From contig CAZYYM010000001.1 in NCBI GenBank assembly GCA_964651385.1, positions 92,168 through 156,167 on the forward strand: a stretch of DNA of 64,000 nt, in the 5' to 3' direction. The translations under genes were made by a program, and so were the position numbers. This DNA is from an uncultured Gammaproteobacteria bacterium. GTDB lineage: Bacteria; Pseudomonadota; Gammaproteobacteria; GCA-001735895. The notes under the pieces were generated by a model that saw only the letters and a program-made list of their open reading frames with translations, was not told the origin of the DNA and did no database searches. Below are positions 17,463 to 63,694 of the stretch, one piece after another; position 1 is the stretch's first letter, and each line of letters begins with the position of its first letter.

Positions 17463-17649
17463 TCCCTTTCCCTAATATCAAATTTTCCGCATGCTCCAGA
17501 CAAAAGCCTCTCCCGCATGCGCTGAAATCGCCAAACTAAAAGTTATAGCCAAAATTACAAATTTAATCACTTTAGTCATCCTAGTTTCCTTTACAAATTC
17601 AGATCAGCTCAAAAAATAACCGGTAATAATTGACTGGCCAAATAACACA

Positions 17650-54753: not shown

Positions 54754-55767
54754 CTAAATCTGCCAGTTTAAACCGCTAAACTGACTAATCAGTGATTTTA
54801 AATGTATCCAGTTTTGATCAGGAAAATCGGCGTCTTGCTGCCCTTTGCTAATGCGGTCTAATGTAGCACAGCTTTGCAATAAACGCTCAATTTGAACCCC
54901 GTTCAATCGTGACAACGCATCATGATATAGATGTCGTTTATTTTTCCAGATTCTTAATGCCTGCCAAACACGGTCGCTCAGGGTTCCGTTCGACTGCGCA
55001 AGTTTGAGACTGTTCAGCTGTTCCAGTGACGAATGTAGTGCCCGGCAAATCTGCGTGGTAACAAAACCCTCATGTTCCAGGCTATCCAGGATATTCAGTG
55101 CACGTGCGGCTTTTCCGGCAAGACAGGCATCGACCAGGATATAATGATTGTAGCGAGCTGACTGGGAAACAGACTCTTCAATCATTTTAAAGCTAACAGC
55201 CTGTCCTTCGGCACAGCGAATAGAAAGCTTTTCCAGTTCCTGGTCGGCAGCCAGTAAATTGCCTTCAGTACGTTCGGCCAGAAAAGCAGCGGACTGTCGA
55301 TCGATTATCAGACCTTTTTGACTCGCCCGCTGAATAATCCAGCCGGATAATTCGTTGGCATATACCGGTTTAAATTCGATGACCTCCGCCGCCTGTTGCA
55401 AACGTTTACACCAGCTTGAATTTTTAGTTGCCCGGTCGAGCCCCGGGACAACAAAGACAAAGACAGTATCATCGGAACGATTTTGACAGATCGACTGAAT
55501 CGCATTGCTGCCCTTTTGCCCCGGTTTGCCATTGACAATATGGATGATTCGGCACTTGCTGCTTGCAAACAGGGATAACATATCGCCTTCTTCGAGCAAT
55601 GCAATCCAGTCAAACCCGGTATCGGCTACCATTGTTTGAATGTCTTCAAAACCCGCATCGCGTAAGGTCTGCCGAAATCGGTCGAGCCAGTCACGAATCA
55701 TTAAGGGTTCGCTACTCGCAAGCAAGTAAATCGGCGACGGGGGGTGATTTGACGGGATGCCCTGCAT
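54754..55767 (-). CDS. holA: DNA polymerase III subunit delta
   Basis: 337 aa, in the lptE/holA/nadD neighbourhood. Confidence 0.8.
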   Translation of the reverse strand: MQGIPSNHPPSPIYLLASSEPLMIRDWLDRFRQTLRDAGFEDIQTMVADTGFDWIALLEEGDMLSLFASSKCRIIHIVNGKPGQKGSNAIQSICQNRSDDTVFVFVVPGLDRATKNSSWCKRLQQAAEVIEFKPVYANELSGWIIQRASQKGLIIDRQSAAFLAERTEGNLLAADQELEKLSIRCAEGQAVSFKMIEESVSQSARYNHYILVDACLAGKAARALNILDSLEHEGFVTTQICRALHSSLEQLNSLKLAQSNGTLSDRVWQALRIWKNKRHLYHDALSRLNGVQIERLLQSCATLDRISKGQQDADFPDQNWIHLKSLISQFSGLNWQI

Positions 55768-55829
55768 TGATTTTATGTTAGCGAATTAAATGGCTGGCCA
55801 TGCTAGCATACTAAATTTACTCGCAGGTA

Positions 55830-55863
55830 CAAAAAACCCTCGAACAACCTTGTCCGAGGGTTT
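55830..55863 (-). terminator. Rho-independent terminator (bidirectional hairpin; 6-U tract on the minus strand)
   Basis: Stem 55836-55841 and 55854-55859 (CCCTCG and CGAGGG) with a 12-nt loop, flanked by AAAAAA and TTTT. Confidence 0.6.
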
Positions 55864-55975
55864 TAAAGATTACCTGCTTTATTTCATCCTGTGGCTTCCC
55901 GCTAGGCATCCATGCCTATGATGTTGTGAGAATTTCCTTATACACATCTCCGTGGTCTGGTTCCTTTCAAACACG
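55830..55975 (-). ncRNA. Candidate Csr/Rsm-family (CsrB/RsmY/RsmZ-like) small RNA
   Basis: On the minus strand, TATAAT (plus coordinates 55986-55981) is followed by about 145 nt carrying at least 6 GGA motifs, including a hairpin AGGCA-UGGA-UGCCU. Transcription ends in the terminator CCCUCG-12 nt-CGAGGG-UUUUUU. A GacA-box-like palindrome lies about 70 bp upstream. Confidence 0.35.
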
Positions 55976-56052
55976 CTGTTATTATAGCGCCTGACTGTCA
56001 ATTACCTATAGGCAGAACAAGTAAACTTATGTAGGCGCAAAGCTAGATTTTT

Positions 56053-56070
56053 TGTAGGATTTGACCTACA
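56053..56070. promoter_or_regulatory. TGTAGG-N6-CCTACA palindrome resembling the GacA/UvrY upstream activating sequence
   Basis: Perfect 6-N6-6 palindrome. The consensus GacA box is TGTAAG-N6-CTTACA. It lies upstream (minus-strand sense) of the candidate sRNA promoter. Confidence 0.3.
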
Positions 56071-56107
56071 AATTACAGGCACTGACTAGTTTCTGAGTCT
56101 TCCAGGA

Positions 56108-57319
56108 TTATATATCCCGTAAACCATCTGAGGGTTCAATTCCGGAAGCCCGTAAACCACCCAGTATGGCCGAAAAAATAGCCGTAACAACCGTTAGAGC
56201 CAATCCCCAGAAGAAATGTTCCGTCAACAGATAGCATAAATTACCTTCAAGGTTCAATCGCGGCGCCAGGAACCTGTTAATCAAGTGTTCAAATCCGAGA
56301 TAAACGAGAACAGCCAGTAGCCACCCCAGAAGGGCTGTATAGCAGGACTGCAGTACTGGAAACAGTACGATGACACTACTTTTGAATCCGATTAATCGCA
56401 AGACACTCAAATCTTTACCCTTGCGATCGACGTTCGCCCACAGGCTTGCGCCAAGCGAGAATGCAAAACCGACCGCACCGACACAGGCTATTATCCAGAA
56501 TATAACCGAGAGGTTATGATCGATTGATTGCACGGTTACGATTTCTCCTACATTGGCCTTGACCCGAACACCCTGTTTCTCCAGCTCGGTAGCGATGTTT
56601 TCGACATCATAAATTGACCGGGCATAGAGCCGAAATGAAGGAAAAGTCCGTGCTGTATCATTTTCAGCATCGCCTTTCCAGCCAAGATCCGGCACCTCAC
56701 GACCATCTTTGAACTGTTCGGTAGCAATCAATAAATCGAGATAGACAAACGCCACATTCCGGCTGGTAACAGCCGCATGGGCTATATCTATGACCGTTAC
56801 AGGCAAATGTACCCTTTCACGTTTGCCCTGAAATTGACGAGCCAGGCTGGCATCAATCTTATCACCCGTCGCTACCTTTAATTTATTAGCCGCGCTCTGG
56901 CTTAAAATTATCTGGTTATAGTTTTGTGGCATCTGTTTTATGCCAGCCAACAGGGGATCGCCTCTTGCGGTTGCCAGCAACTCCGATGAGACTATTCGTG
57001 GCGCCGAATCACTTTTCAGTTGTATTGTCGCGGCAAGTGCTCGCGTTTTAGGTATAATAAAGTCAATTTCATTGCGGTTTCGGAGTTCCGCTATCCACTG
57101 TTCTGAAAATCGGCCACTTCCGACAGGCCGAATTTCGCGATTTGACGGATTTTCTACCAGCCCATCCACCATCGTACTGACAATACCAAATTTCAAACCG
57201 AACAGGATCATCATCGGCGCCAGCACTGACGCCAACGCAAAAATAAAACAGCCCGACATGCGCCATTCGTGACTGTAGTCTCGAAAACTGAGGCGAATTA
57301 TATTACTAAACTGGCTCAT
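56108..57319 (-). CDS. FtsX/MacB-type ABC transporter permease
   Basis: 403 aa. TM1, a large periplasmic loop and 3 C-terminal TM segments. Confidence 0.75.
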   Translation of the reverse strand: MSQFSNIIRLSFRDYSHEWRMSGCFIFALASVLAPMMILFGLKFGIVSTMVDGLVENPSNREIRPVGSGRFSEQWIAELRNRNEIDFIIPKTRALAATIQLKSDSAPRIVSSELLATARGDPLLAGIKQMPQNYNQIILSQSAANKLKVATGDKIDASLARQFQGKRERVHLPVTVIDIAHAAVTSRNVAFVYLDLLIATEQFKDGREVPDLGWKGDAENDTARTFPSFRLYARSIYDVENIATELEKQGVRVKANVGEIVTVQSIDHNLSVIFWIIACVGAVGFAFSLGASLWANVDRKGKDLSVLRLIGFKSSVIVLFPVLQSCYTALLGWLLAVLVYLGFEHLINRFLAPRLNLEGNLCYLLTEHFFWGLALTVVTAIFSAILGGLRASGIEPSDGLRDI

Positions 57320-58045
57320 CTAATCGCGAAAAATTGACTGATAAATTTGTCCGTCCTCTATCACCTCGGCCTCCTGACGAAGGACACGTAAATCCATTTT
57401 ATAGACATGCGCCCAGTCATGGCTGGCAGTAATCAACGTAATTTTTAATCCTTTGATGAGTTCCATGACTACTGCCATAATTTTCCGGGTCGTTATCGGA
57501 TCGAGTGAGGCAGTGGGTTCATCAGCCAACAAAATCGAAGGCCTGTGAGACAGTGCTCGTGCAAAAGCAGCGCGCTGCCTTTCACCGGTAGATAACAACC
57601 CGGGTAACTTGTCCAGCTGGCGATGAATACCCAGCACACGGGCAATTGAATTAACTGAATCGTCGTCAGCCTGTTTGAGCAGGCGTCGAGGCAATTCTAT
57701 ATTTTCCCGTACGGTCAAATAGGGTAAAAGGCCACCGGATTGCAGTACATATCCAATATGTTGTTTTCGAATCTGCGATAATCCGCTTTGTTTTTTCCGG
57801 CGCCAGAGTTTATCGATTTGCTGCGACTTACTACCCACAGGCTCAAGATTGAACATATCGCTTTGGTCCGGATGGAGAATTAAGGCCAGTATATCCAGCA
57901 GCGTACTCTTGCCACAGCCACTATTCCCGATCAGGGCTATATTCTCCTCGGCGTTTATTTTGATGCTTGGCACCCGAAGGCGAAATCCGACACCATCGAC
58001 CAGCCGTTCCTTGACGACGTTTTTCAGAGTATACACAACTGACAC
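57320..58045 (-). CDS. ABC transporter ATP-binding protein
   Basis: Walker A GNSGCGKST, signature LSTGERQR, Walker B ILLADEP. Confidence 0.85.
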   Translation of the reverse strand: MSVVYTLKNVVKERLVDGVGFRLRVPSIKINAEENIALIGNSGCGKSTLLDILALILHPDQSDMFNLEPVGSKSQQIDKLWRRKKQSGLSQIRKQHIGYVLQSGGLLPYLTVRENIELPRRLLKQADDDSVNSIARVLGIHRQLDKLPGLLSTGERQRAAFARALSHRPSILLADEPTASLDPITTRKIMAVVMELIKGLKITLITASHDWAHVYKMDLRVLRQEAEVIEDGQIYQSIFRD

Positions 58046-58070
58046 GAGCTAGTGCTCTTTCAAGCTGGCA

Positions 58071-60026
58071 CTAGGGCAACAGGTCGAGCGCAACCGGGAA
58101 TACCGAATTGCCATTAACCGGACCACCACCGGGCGTGACCCACAGATCGGTATGGTCATGCAAAGCCTGGTAGTAACTGATTTTACTATCGAGACGTTGC
58201 ATAAACTCAATTTGGGTTTTGGCAGACCACTCTTCCCAGCTTTCCAGCGTCAGATTCATGACTTCACCGGTATAGGGCAGGTCTTCGATGTATTCACGCA
58301 TATAGCCCATTTCAGCCAGGTTGGTACCCGCGCCCGAAGTGCTGGCGCCGACGGATGACGGATCACGACTCACGGTGGCTGCCAGACTTTTCAGATCATT
58401 GATAAAATTTTTCGGGCTGAGCACACCTTCTTCGGCAAGCTCAAGCACCTGTTGCATGACATCTTTCAAATCACTGAGCTGATCACGGGTGAGCAAGACC
58501 CGAACATCGACCGACGAGCGTTCCGGATTGAGAAAATCACGGTCAACCATCCAGGCATTGAATACTTTAGGCAAAGGCTTACCGGATTCCTTTTGTATAT
58601 AGCGCATGCGTAAGGCGTGTCCCAGCTTCGAAACGCGGTCCTGCAATTGTGCCAACTGAGTCTGTTCTTCGTCATTTTCAACATCGGCTAAGGGTATTGG
58701 TGGTACACCATTCGTAGTCGCCAGCACCTGCTGAGTAATCTGATTTGCCAGCGTTTCCAACACCGTGCCGAACTCATCGACCTCACCGAGGCTAACGCCG
58801 TAGTAAAAATCACCAATACCGGGGAAGTATGAGAGCTCCTTATAGAGGTTTTCGGCCTTTTCATGGTTCGCCGCAATGGCCGGCGTACGCAAATGCAATA
58901 CCCAGATCGAGACGCCTTTGTCATAAGCTAACTGTCGCAAAGCTTTGGCACTTAAACGCGTGGCACCAAGCGAATCATGGCTCTCGCGCGGACCGGCATC
59001 GGTAATCAAAACGACATAGCGGGCGTCGAAGTCCCCCCAGTCCGAATCCTCAATGGCCGACTTTATCCCGGCATAGGCATCTTCGCGGAAATCCCGACTG
59101 GATATTTCCGAAGCACTCAGTGCGTTAACACCTTCTAAAAACTGATCCACATCTGTTCCCTGCTCGAGACTGACATAACGTCGCGTCAGGTATTCAAGTT
59201 CCGGTACCAGTGAAATATTATCGCGGTAAGCGGTTAGACCGAAGCTGACCTGATTGGTCAGGCCCTGCCGGTCGATGGCGGAATATACCTTGCGGACCGC
59301 CTCTCGCGTTCGGTCGATATAAGGTCCCATTGACGCAGTCGAGTCGATAACAAAATGTATGGCGCTGCGGTAGCTACGGTTTTTTTGAGAAGCTGAATGA
59401 GACCCGACTGATTTATCGTTTTCATCGTCAAGTGGAACACTGGCGACCTCCAGTAATCGAGCCTGTTCATTACCGAGATAAACGTCTTCATGCTGTTTGA
59501 TAGGCACCAGGTAAAAATTATCGCGAATTTCCAGATGTGCTTCGGGCTGCAGCGCAATAACCGGGCTATTTTCCAGTTTGTCACCGTTTACCGCAGCCTG
59601 GTAAAGAGTCTGGTAGGCCGCTTTGTCGAAGTCGTCAACCAGTTGTTTAAGCGCTTTTTTGCTGTTGAACAACATGACCCGCTGGATATCCTGCGGGTCT
59701 TTAAATGAAACAGTGAGCGCCTGATTCCACACAATCGCCTGCTTCTCCGGCACCCAACCCGCCGTTTTACCGAAACTGTCGTAACCGACACGTAACCAGC
59801 CATTCTGTTTTTCGTAAACGTATAAAACACTGAACGGTATAATTTCCTCGGAAACGCCCCCAACATCGGTGGATTGAAAAATTTGCGCATCAGGAATACT
59901 CAGTACACGTTGGTAGAGCGATTTTTTACCTTCCATCAGCAATGGTTTCTGATTCGAAGCCTGAATATTAAAGGATAGCAACAGGATAAAGCTGAGTAGC
60001 ACTCTGGTTATAATTTTTTCCAACAT
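58071..60026 (-). CDS. Secreted von Willebrand factor A (vWA) domain protein
   Basis: Signal peptide. MIDAS motif VIDSTASM (DxSxS) at the start of a vWA fold, followed by a roughly 250-aa C-terminal region. Confidence 0.65.
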   Translation of the reverse strand: MLEKIITRVLLSFILLLSFNIQASNQKPLLMEGKKSLYQRVLSIPDAQIFQSTDVGGVSEEIIPFSVLYVYEKQNGWLRVGYDSFGKTAGWVPEKQAIVWNQALTVSFKDPQDIQRVMLFNSKKALKQLVDDFDKAAYQTLYQAAVNGDKLENSPVIALQPEAHLEIRDNFYLVPIKQHEDVYLGNEQARLLEVASVPLDDENDKSVGSHSASQKNRSYRSAIHFVIDSTASMGPYIDRTREAVRKVYSAIDRQGLTNQVSFGLTAYRDNISLVPELEYLTRRYVSLEQGTDVDQFLEGVNALSASEISSRDFREDAYAGIKSAIEDSDWGDFDARYVVLITDAGPRESHDSLGATRLSAKALRQLAYDKGVSIWVLHLRTPAIAANHEKAENLYKELSYFPGIGDFYYGVSLGEVDEFGTVLETLANQITQQVLATTNGVPPIPLADVENDEEQTQLAQLQDRVSKLGHALRMRYIQKESGKPLPKVFNAWMVDRDFLNPERSSVDVRVLLTRDQLSDLKDVMQQVLELAEEGVLSPKNFINDLKSLAATVSRDPSSVGASTSGAGTNLAEMGYMREYIEDLPYTGEVMNLTLESWEEWSAKTQIEFMQRLDSKISYYQALHDHTDLWVTPGGGPVNGNSVFPVALDLLP

Positions 60027-60053
60027 TTCACCTGTTTATTCGATATCGATAAT

Positions 60054-60644
60054 TTACTGTACAACCAGTAGTAGCTGTCGTGCGTAGGGATTTCCCGTTT
60101 CAGATTCCTGCTGCGCCCATTGCTGAAGCGCCTGAATACGCCCGCTAACATCCGGATGACCCTGTTCTGCCGCCTTTTGATACCACTTGTAGGATTGCAG
60201 GGCATCAGCGTGATCGAGTAAGCTGTTTTCCGGCTGAAACAAATTCGGGTCTGACATTTCAGCCATTTTAACCATCGATTCAGCATAACCCTCACGGGCA
60301 CCGAAAAAATACAGCAGATGCGAATCGGCCAGGCTGCCTTCATTGTAATATTCATTGGCTTTTGCAAAAACCTGGTCGAGTGGATAAGGTTGCCCCTGGA
60401 CTCGCAGTTGCGCAATGAACTGACGAGCGCGCATACCCGGTGGAACAAGCAGGCTACGTTGAATGGCACCGGACAATTCATCGTTTTTATCGTCGTTATC
60501 AGCAGGCGCAGTACCGACAACGGTGGTATTACCCCGTTCAGTGGCCAAAACGATATAGGCAATCAGACCAATCACAATAAGAATGATCCAGAAAAGCGGA
60601 TTTCGCTTCCGTTTTGATGAATCTGCTTCGATCATATCAGGCAT
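60054..60644 (-). CDS. Membrane-anchored protein with a Sel1/TPR-like helical C-terminus
   Basis: N-terminal TM (LFWIILIVIGLIAYIVL). The C-terminus YKWYQKAAEQGHPDV is Sel1-like. Preferred over the overlapping alternative-frame ORF 60008..60562. Confidence 0.5.
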   Translation of the reverse strand: MPDMIEADSSKRKRNPLFWIILIVIGLIAYIVLATERGNTTVVGTAPADNDDKNDELSGAIQRSLLVPPGMRARQFIAQLRVQGQPYPLDQVFAKANEYYNEGSLADSHLLYFFGAREGYAESMVKMAEMSDPNLFQPENSLLDHADALQSYKWYQKAAEQGHPDVSGRIQALQQWAQQESETGNPYARQLLLVVQ

Positions 60645-60743
60645 GAATATTTCGCTTGTTGTAGGTTTTCAATGTGATCTGCAGTAATTATAAACACTTG
60701 CAGGCACCGGGTAAATTTCATCAACAATAGAATAGAAATCAGA

Positions 60744-63694
<2,951 letters not shown>

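Follow-up and report, generated by a model that had tools for sequence, protein, structure and literature searches.

A conserved small RNA upstream of holA in an uncultured gammaproteobacterial clade, probably a sponge of the Csr/Rsm type

We analysed a stretch of 64,000 nucleotides from an uncultured gammaproteobacterium (GenBank assembly GCA_964651385.1, contig CAZYYM010000001.1, positions 92,168 to 156,167 of the forward strand), which is referred to as the window and in which all coordinates are counted unless a locus is named. The gap between holA and the gene of an FtsX-type ATP-binding cassette (ABC) permease carries, on the minus strand, a predicted small RNA (sRNA) with its own promoter elements. 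An earlier inspection of the letters alone, called here the sequence-only reading, had given the size of this gap correctly and had proposed that it holds an sRNA of the Csr/Rsm family. That interpretation is supported by a palindrome, a −10 box, hairpins and a terminator that are conserved in about 60 homologues, by the fixed spacing of palindrome and promoter, and by the canonical half-sites seen in some homologues. The features of the locus, in the direction of transcription, are the following.

56108–57319: FtsX-type ABC permease gene (Pfam PF02687), upstream of the sRNA
55768–56107: intergenic gap between holA and the permease gene, 340 bp
56053–56070, minus strand: palindrome TGTAGG-TCAAAT-CCTACA, 18 bp and perfect, centred at about −87 from the inferred start (half-sites TGTAGG at 56070–56065 and CCTACA at 56058–56053, spacer TCAAAT)
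56030–56035, minus strand: lone third half-site CCTACA, 16 nt downstream of the palindrome, centred at about −58
55981–55986, minus strand: −10 hexamer TATAAT, 66 nt after the palindrome
55831–55974, minus strand: predicted sRNA of about 144 nt, with the 5′ end inferred from the −10 box and the 3′ end at the U-tract
55955–55972, minus strand: hairpin H1, with an 8-nt loop containing GGA1 (55964–55962)
55949–55951, minus strand: GGA2, in the linker between H1 and H2, consensus AAnGGAGAUG
55920–55948, minus strand: hairpin H2, with a GAUGU/ACAUC base and a variable apex containing GGA3 (55937–55935)
55903–55918, minus strand: hairpin H3, AGGCA-UGGA-UGCCU, with GGA4 in the loop (55911–55909)
55894–55902, minus strand: mini-hairpin H4, GC-GGGAA-GC (consensus GC-AGGAU-GC), with GGA5 in the loop (55899–55897)
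55887–55889, minus strand: GGA6, in an unpaired region, consensus CUGGAUGA
55866–55878, minus strand: block AGCAGGUAAUCUU, which varies least in the whole RNA, unpaired and without a GGA site
55831–55863, minus strand: intrinsic terminator CCCUCGGACA-AGGU-UGUUCGAGGG followed by U6; an upstream A4 can lengthen the stem
54754–55767: holA (matches TIGR01128, E = 2e-70)

To follow the element in related genomes, we searched with nhmmer using the window gap. In 27 loci of species-level metagenome-assembled genomes (MAGs), this revealed a homologue that precedes holA in the same orientation. A pattern scan of metagenome contigs gave 45 further loci, 37 of which are true copies as judged by a covariance model; the other eight are chance matches in GC-rich coding DNA without confirmation by the model. 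The order permease, sRNA, holA is found wherever the flanks are present. The covariance model that we built for the family, R1, has 60 matches and scores 131 bits for the window copy and 85–146 bits for full-length homologues, while truncated copies score 103.5 bits (a 61st copy, cut at the 5′ end, in L087) and 77.5 and 88.1 bits (copies cut at the 3′ end). The element is conserved and covarying in 57 related sequences, which we consider the decisive evidence that it is real beyond chance. The covariance model detected no second copy or paralogue in the window or in 125 related loci, apart from a partial copy in L092 (6700–6805). The two copies are about 290 nt apart and identical in sequence, but the second has neither palindrome nor −10 box and is truncated where the contig ends; a (recent) tandem duplication or an assembly artefact would explain it.

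The window RNA has a minimum free energy of −43.8 kcal/mol, with z = −3.45 relative to shuffled sequences. RNAalifold, applied to 25 sequences aligned with MAFFT, returns four hairpins and the terminator, with compensatory changes in 17 of 24 pairs, and an explicit pair count on the 25 aligned sequences gives 93.0% of cells paired and double changes in 18 of 27 pairs. None of 500 shuffles attains any of these measures, and slid registers are paired at only 33–51%. The model-fitted alignment of the 57 distinct sequences gives 95.8% paired cells and double changes in 19 of 24 pairs, again with no shuffle out of 500 attaining any measure and with slid registers at 29–49%. Fitting to the model biases this second alignment in favour of the structure, a bias from which the MAFFT alignment is free.

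Taken helix by helix, compensatory changes are present in all five pairs of H1, in four to five pairs of the 5-bp base of H2 (95–98% paired), in three pairs of H3 (94–95% paired) and in five to six of the seven scored pairs of the terminator helix (94–98% paired). H1, H2, H3 and the terminator are backed by covariation. H4 is without such support because its two G-C pairs are invariant. The H3 hairpin with a GGA in its loop is the one that the sequence-only reading had singled out, and it is found as described, at 55918–55903. For the terminator, the same reading was right about its strength and the U6 tract and wrong about a 6-bp GC stem, which measures 10 bp, or 14 bp if the A4/U4 extension is included. 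A simple consensus terminator scan did not list this terminator, which folding and covariation show clearly; the scan probably missed it because the A4/U4 extension absorbs the T-run into the stem. A further helix of 3 bp around GGA6 (CUG/CAG) was not adopted, being paired in 81% and showing almost no covariation.

The RNA does not appear to encode a protein. No conserved open reading frame (ORF) is found in the RNA across the 57 sequences, with a median of 26 amino acids for the longest ORF in the sense direction, and the insertions and deletions among orthologues are not multiples of three and break the reading frame. A small peptide starting from the conserved GGAGAUG was also considered and rejected, given the lack of a Shine-Dalgarno-to-AUG spacing and these frame-breaking changes in the orthologues.

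The sequence-only reading had counted at least six GGA triplets in a body of about 145 nt, and we find seven in about 144 nt. Six lie outside the terminator, starting at 55964, 55951, 55937, 55911, 55899 and 55889, and the seventh is within the terminator stem. This density of 7 per 145 nt, compared with a minus-strand mean of 1.8, falls in the top 0.34% of segments, and the family median is also 7 GGA per RNA. The positions outside the terminator are kept to different extents among the 57 distinct sequences.

GGA1, loop of H1: kept in 55 of 57
GGA2, linker, outside every covariation-backed helix: kept in 54 of 57
GGA3, apex of H2: kept in 24 of 57
GGA4, loop of H3: kept in 49 of 57
GGA5, loop of H4: kept in 56 of 57
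GGA6, unpaired region: kept in 39 of 57

Four GGA positions, those in the loops of H1, H3 and H4 and that in the linker, are therefore conserved in 86–98% of the sequences. Folding, which had been suggested as a check of whether the motifs are single-stranded, and covariation place the conserved GGAs in hairpin loops or in the linker. The calculated probability of being unpaired in the window RNA is 0.99 for GGA1 and 0.98 for GGA4, and the mean across orthologues, for which the estimates scatter more, is 0.75 for both of these motifs, relative to 0.40 for all nucleotides. The stems change in a compensatory manner while the GGA in the loop stays, which is the pattern expected from selection for a displayed GGA.

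Upstream of the RNA, the perfect TGTAGG-N6-CCTACA palindrome is located where it had first been noticed. It differs by one mismatch per half-site from the GacA/UvrY box, as had been pointed out, so that 10 of the 12 specified bases match. The UvrY/GacA box is TGTAAGN6CTTACA (PMC3171408, PMC8523701), and the footprint of UvrY at csrB is an 18-nt inverted repeat, TGTGAGAGATCTCTTACA (PMC4682653). The pattern TGTARG-N6-CYTACA occurs a single time in the 64 kb, even with one mismatch permitted, against 0.23 occurrences expected. Among the 28 genome copies the core of the palindrome (GTAGG..CYTAC) is fixed: G2, T3, A4, T15 and C17 are invariant, and G5, G6 and C13 are each kept in 27 copies. Position 14 is C in 23 copies and T in five, and one copy has TGTAAG. 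From these variants we derive the family consensus TGTARG-N6-CYTACA, which includes the canonical GacA half-sites. Several orthologues indeed have TGTAAG or CTTACA, as do metagenome copies. Sufficient upstream DNA is available for 34 metagenome copies, and all but one of these (33) have the core of the palindrome at the matching offset.

The distance from the start of the palindrome to the start of the −10 box is 82–85 nt in the 28 genome copies, mostly 83–84 nt, while the DNA in between is not conserved. The sole conserved part of this interval is the third half-site, with consensus (C/A)(C/T)TACA, of which TAC is invariant in 28 of 28 copies at 34–35 nt from the start of the palindrome. The consensus TATAAT had been placed about 65 bp past the palindrome, close to the measured 66 nt, and its conservation in the 28 orthologues is T27 A28 T24 A26 A22 T28. 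No conserved −35 box was found, and a two-hexamer sigma-70 scan gave no full promoter. A good −10 box that stands alone fits with an activator-dependent promoter. We propose the palindrome as a candidate binding site for a dimer of a GacA/UvrY-type response regulator. Accessory half-sites are also known from Escherichia coli, where csrB has TGTAGGAGA 5 bp from the inverted repeat and csrC has the half-site TGTAAG; TGTAGG is itself an accessory UvrY half-site at csrB (PMC4682653).

The Rfam scan with the Csr/Rsm models, which the sequence-only reading had named as a check, returned no match in the window, even at E ≤ 10. CsrB (RF00018), CsrC (RF00084), PrrB_RsmZ (RF00166) and RsmX (RF02144) have no match at E ≤ 10 either at 55700–56200 or in 16 loci, 15 of them with a copy. 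In these 16 loci, the sole Csr/Rsm-type signal is a match of RsmY (RF00195) in L095, which scores 23 bits where the gathering threshold is 57, and its alignment covers only the GCAGGAUGC hairpin (the H4 motif) and runs beyond the terminator. Weak matches to His_leader (26.7 versus 49 bits), rimP and snoRNA models were rejected as identities, being noise driven by the terminator. The whole 64-kb window has zero Rfam families at the gathering score, so that no tRNA, riboswitch or known sRNA is detected in it. Since the Rfam models fail, the RNA is not within the RsmY, RsmZ, RsmX, CsrB or CsrC sequence families. It forms a new sequence family within what is very probably a known functional class, so far restricted to one uncultured clade of Gammaproteobacteria.

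The conservation of the element, its structure, its displayed GGA motifs and the architecture of its promoter are direct observations, and together they point to an sRNA that sequesters CsrA/RsmA, a reading that we consider likely; its activator would probably be a regulator of the GacA/UvrY type. Kulkarni et al. described such genes as intergenic, dense in AGGA/ARGGA, ending in a Rho-independent terminator, with GGA in loops or free regions, and with a conserved 18-bp upstream site (PMC1488887). The first four of these properties are found here. The counterpart of the fifth is a variant, an 18-bp site of the right form that deviates by one base in each half-site and has 10 of 12 canonical bases, a candidate site for such a regulator.

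In the mechanism that we propose, a phosphorylated regulator of the GacA/UvrY type would bind the palindrome near −87, probably aided by the half-site near −58, and the bound regulator would activate the promoter, which has a good −10 box and no −35 box. The predicted non-coding transcript of about 144 nt, made from its own promoter, folds into a series of short hairpins that ends with the intrinsic terminator, as covariation shows. Four to six GGA/ANGGA motifs are exposed by this fold, some in the H1, H3 and H4 loops and others in linkers that are single-stranded. We infer that these motifs mimic the Shine-Dalgarno-like mRNA sites of CsrA/RsmA dimers, and that an abundant RNA of this kind would titrate CsrA/RsmA off its targets and lift translational repression. 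The binding of CsrA, its titration and the identity of the activator are thus deduced from the features of the element. We assume that the genome encodes csrA and gacA, as Gammaproteobacteria generally do.

Several results weigh against this reading. No match to E. coli CsrA was obtained by tblastn, either in the window or among the 125 loci (about 1 Mb of related loci), and none to a UvrY query in the window and in L001–L080. None of the Rfam Csr/Rsm models attains its threshold, and the box departs from the canonical one by one base per half-site, so that the regulator could be other than GacA. A dinucleotide-preserving shuffle of the window RNA gives a GGA enrichment of only p ~ 0.05, which makes the GGA count of a single sequence weak evidence. 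Conservation is poor at GGA3 and GGA6, the former being paired in some sub-clades, while the thermodynamic probability of being unpaired across orthologues is only about 0.5 for GGA2 and GGA5. Two relatives are without the element at this site, where the permease gene adjoins holA (L010, 3986–4001; L021, 3902–3989), and in these the sRNA is either lost or moved. Finally, a sponge leaves the most conserved block of the RNA, AGCAGGUAAUCUU, unexplained.

This block counts in favour of the first alternative, in which the element is a genuine structured sRNA that works in another mode, by Hfq-dependent base-pairing or as a sponge for another protein, and/or under a regulator other than GacA, the GGA loops being incidental or serving a different protein. 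Such an RNA would account for the failure of the Rfam Csr/Rsm models, for the non-canonical box and for csrA and gacA not being seen in the window and the related loci. It would also give a role to AGCAGGUAAUCUU, which contains no GGA and lies single-stranded beside the terminator, a place often taken by base-pairing seeds and Hfq modules; within it, GCAGGTAATCT is retained at 90% or more across the 57 sequences. On the other hand, four GGAs in loops and linker are kept at 86–98% above compensating stems, which indicates selection for a displayed GGA, and the upstream site has the exact 18-bp geometry of GacA/UvrY boxes, with canonical half-sites in orthologues. Neither is there an excess in the window of sites complementary to the invariant block (6 versus 4.7 expected). 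We regard this alternative as unlikely.

A related possibility retains the Csr-type function and adds to it. AGCAGGUAAUCUU could be a base-pairing seed or a module for Hfq or RNase E, and the RNA might then be a dual-function Csr-type sRNA, with a base-pairing seed or a second protein module in this block, or a regulator distinct from GacA might recognise its box with the fixed third half-site. We give this little weight at present. If true, a non-GacA regulator at the box would place a sponge for CsrA under the control of another signal, in an uncultured clade that is abundant in marine or sediment habitats.

A cis-acting role is a good deal less probable. The hairpins and the terminator could be a 5′ leader or attenuator of holA that controls read-through into the gene of the DNA polymerase III delta subunit. 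The element invariably comes just before holA in the same orientation, an intrinsic terminator ahead of a gene is a hallmark of attenuators, and the sole Rfam matches in the window are to leader families (His_leader and rimP). These matches, however, are driven by the terminator, which is all that they align to, and are far under threshold. Moreover, the distance from the terminator to holA varies between 54 and 604 nt, with intervening DNA that is unconserved or bears inserts resembling miniature inverted-repeat transposable elements (MITEs), no conserved anti-terminator pairing is seen, and in the two relatives mentioned above holA comes straight after the permease gene without the element. 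We therefore find a holA leader very improbable.

The last alternative, that the RNA is a fragment derived from the 3′ untranslated region of the ABC permease mRNA and no separate gene, has in its favour that the RNA follows the permease gene in the same orientation, 38 nt or more past its stop codon, and in rigid synteny with it, but it is barely credible in view of the conserved TATAAT at a fixed distance from the conserved palindrome, both between the stop codon and the RNA in a sequence that is otherwise unconserved up to the −10 box, which indicates a regulated promoter of its own.

Returning to the interpretation as a CsrA/RsmA sponge, the closest likeness is with RsmY and RsmX of Pseudomonas (RF00195, RF02144), which share with the window RNA the size class of about 110–145 nt, short GC-stem hairpins of the GCAGGAUGC type and a Rho-independent terminator. 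In P. brassicacearum RsmX has 6 GGA motifs, of which 2–4 are exposed, and RsmY has 7, of which 4–5 are exposed (PMC7911923), and the window RNA matches both in size and in GGA number. Sequestration requires more than one GGA motif (PMC2375449). A palindrome of 18 bp with the form TGTA-N10-TACA, which is the upstream activating sequence of RsmY/RsmX (PMC2375449, PMC3171408), stands ahead of the window RNA too, with half-sites TGTAAG/CTTACA in RsmY/RsmX and TGTAGG/CCTACA in the window. In contrast, the window RNA has no detectable sequence homology with RsmY/RsmX, and it has the invariant AGCAGGUAAUCUU block and the lone third half-site, which they lack. Its host belongs to an uncultured clade, and the dependence on GacA and the binding of RsmA are only predicted here.

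The proposed logic is also that of CsrB and CsrC in the BarA-UvrY-Csr system of Enterobacteria, Vibrio and Shewanella (RF00018, RF00084), with a regulator that acts on an 18-nt inverted repeat and GGA loops that sequester CsrA, and with accessory half-sites beside the inverted repeat (PMC4682653). CsrB and CsrC are larger, at about 250–420 nt with 9–22 binding motifs, whereas the window RNA has about 144 nt and 4–7 motifs. The inverted repeat of E. coli is centred at about −183, and IHF is needed at csrB, whereas the window palindrome is centred at about −87. The predicted CsrB/CsrC of Marinomonas mediterranea, like other Csr sRNAs of single lineages that were predicted from features, were found by the same combination of a GacA box, unpaired ANGGA/AGGA motifs and a terminator (PMC8523701). 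That prediction concerns a single genome, whereas the window family has about 60 homologues with covariation, in uncultured hosts without genetics. Neither the sequence nor the copy number of Csr sRNA genes is conserved between lineages (PMC8523701).

Csr/Rsm sponge RNAs are the output of a main global regulatory switch in Gammaproteobacteria, and they go unannotated outside model organisms because their sequences are lineage-specific. From a clade that has been seen only in environmental metagenomes (marine, sediment and others), the present analysis adds a well-supported family of about 60 sequences, together with the covariance model R1 and a box that is a variant of the GacA type. The model enables annotation of the sRNA in MAGs, its expression in metatranscriptomes could report on Gac/Csr signalling in situ, and the palindrome offers a pattern with which the remaining regulon can be sought. 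The understanding of the Csr pathway itself is unchanged, and the proposed mechanism is not surprising.

The genes around the sRNA are ordered leuS (61226–63679), two unassigned small ORFs of 161 and 196 amino acids, a gene for a von Willebrand factor A (vWA)-domain protein of 651 amino acids (58071–60026), ABC ATPase, FtsX permease, sRNA and holA, and downstream of holA they continue with proA, nadD, rsfS, rlmH, rng and yhdP, in this order. The canonical neighbourhood is leuS-lptE-holA-nadD. The usual leuS-lptE-holA arrangement is split by a block at 56108–61229 on the minus strand, which runs from the two small ORFs to the permease and is conserved within the clade. The nearest relatives of the holA protein have 60–80% identity and come from MAGs and metagenomes; in a scan of species-representative genomes, holA of cultured genera such as Halomonas, Solimonas and Thiomicrorhabdus shows an identity of only about 33–36%. 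On the basis of these holA relatives, we assign the source to an uncultured gammaproteobacterial clade.

A GGA-dense gap at 17463–17649 on the minus strand was rejected as an Rsm-like RNA, as it holds a small ORF (17480–17578, minus strand) that encodes MTKVIKFVILAITFSLAISAHAGEAFVWSMRKI, a signal-peptide-like sequence of 33 amino acids, with an AGGA-rich Shine-Dalgarno region ahead of it. The longer gaps between terminator and holA in some relatives were likewise rejected as a second GGA-rich RNA, since they contain a MITE-like palindromic insert. This insert is an imperfect palindrome of about 145 nt that resembles MITEs or repetitive extragenic palindromic (REP) elements and is located between the sRNA terminator and holA (L004, 3642–3786; L103, 10630–10486, in reverse; L095, 1209–1345). 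It matches itself in both orientations and is absent from the window. Within the clade, the permease is better conserved than holA, with identities of 72–82% and 54–73%, respectively.

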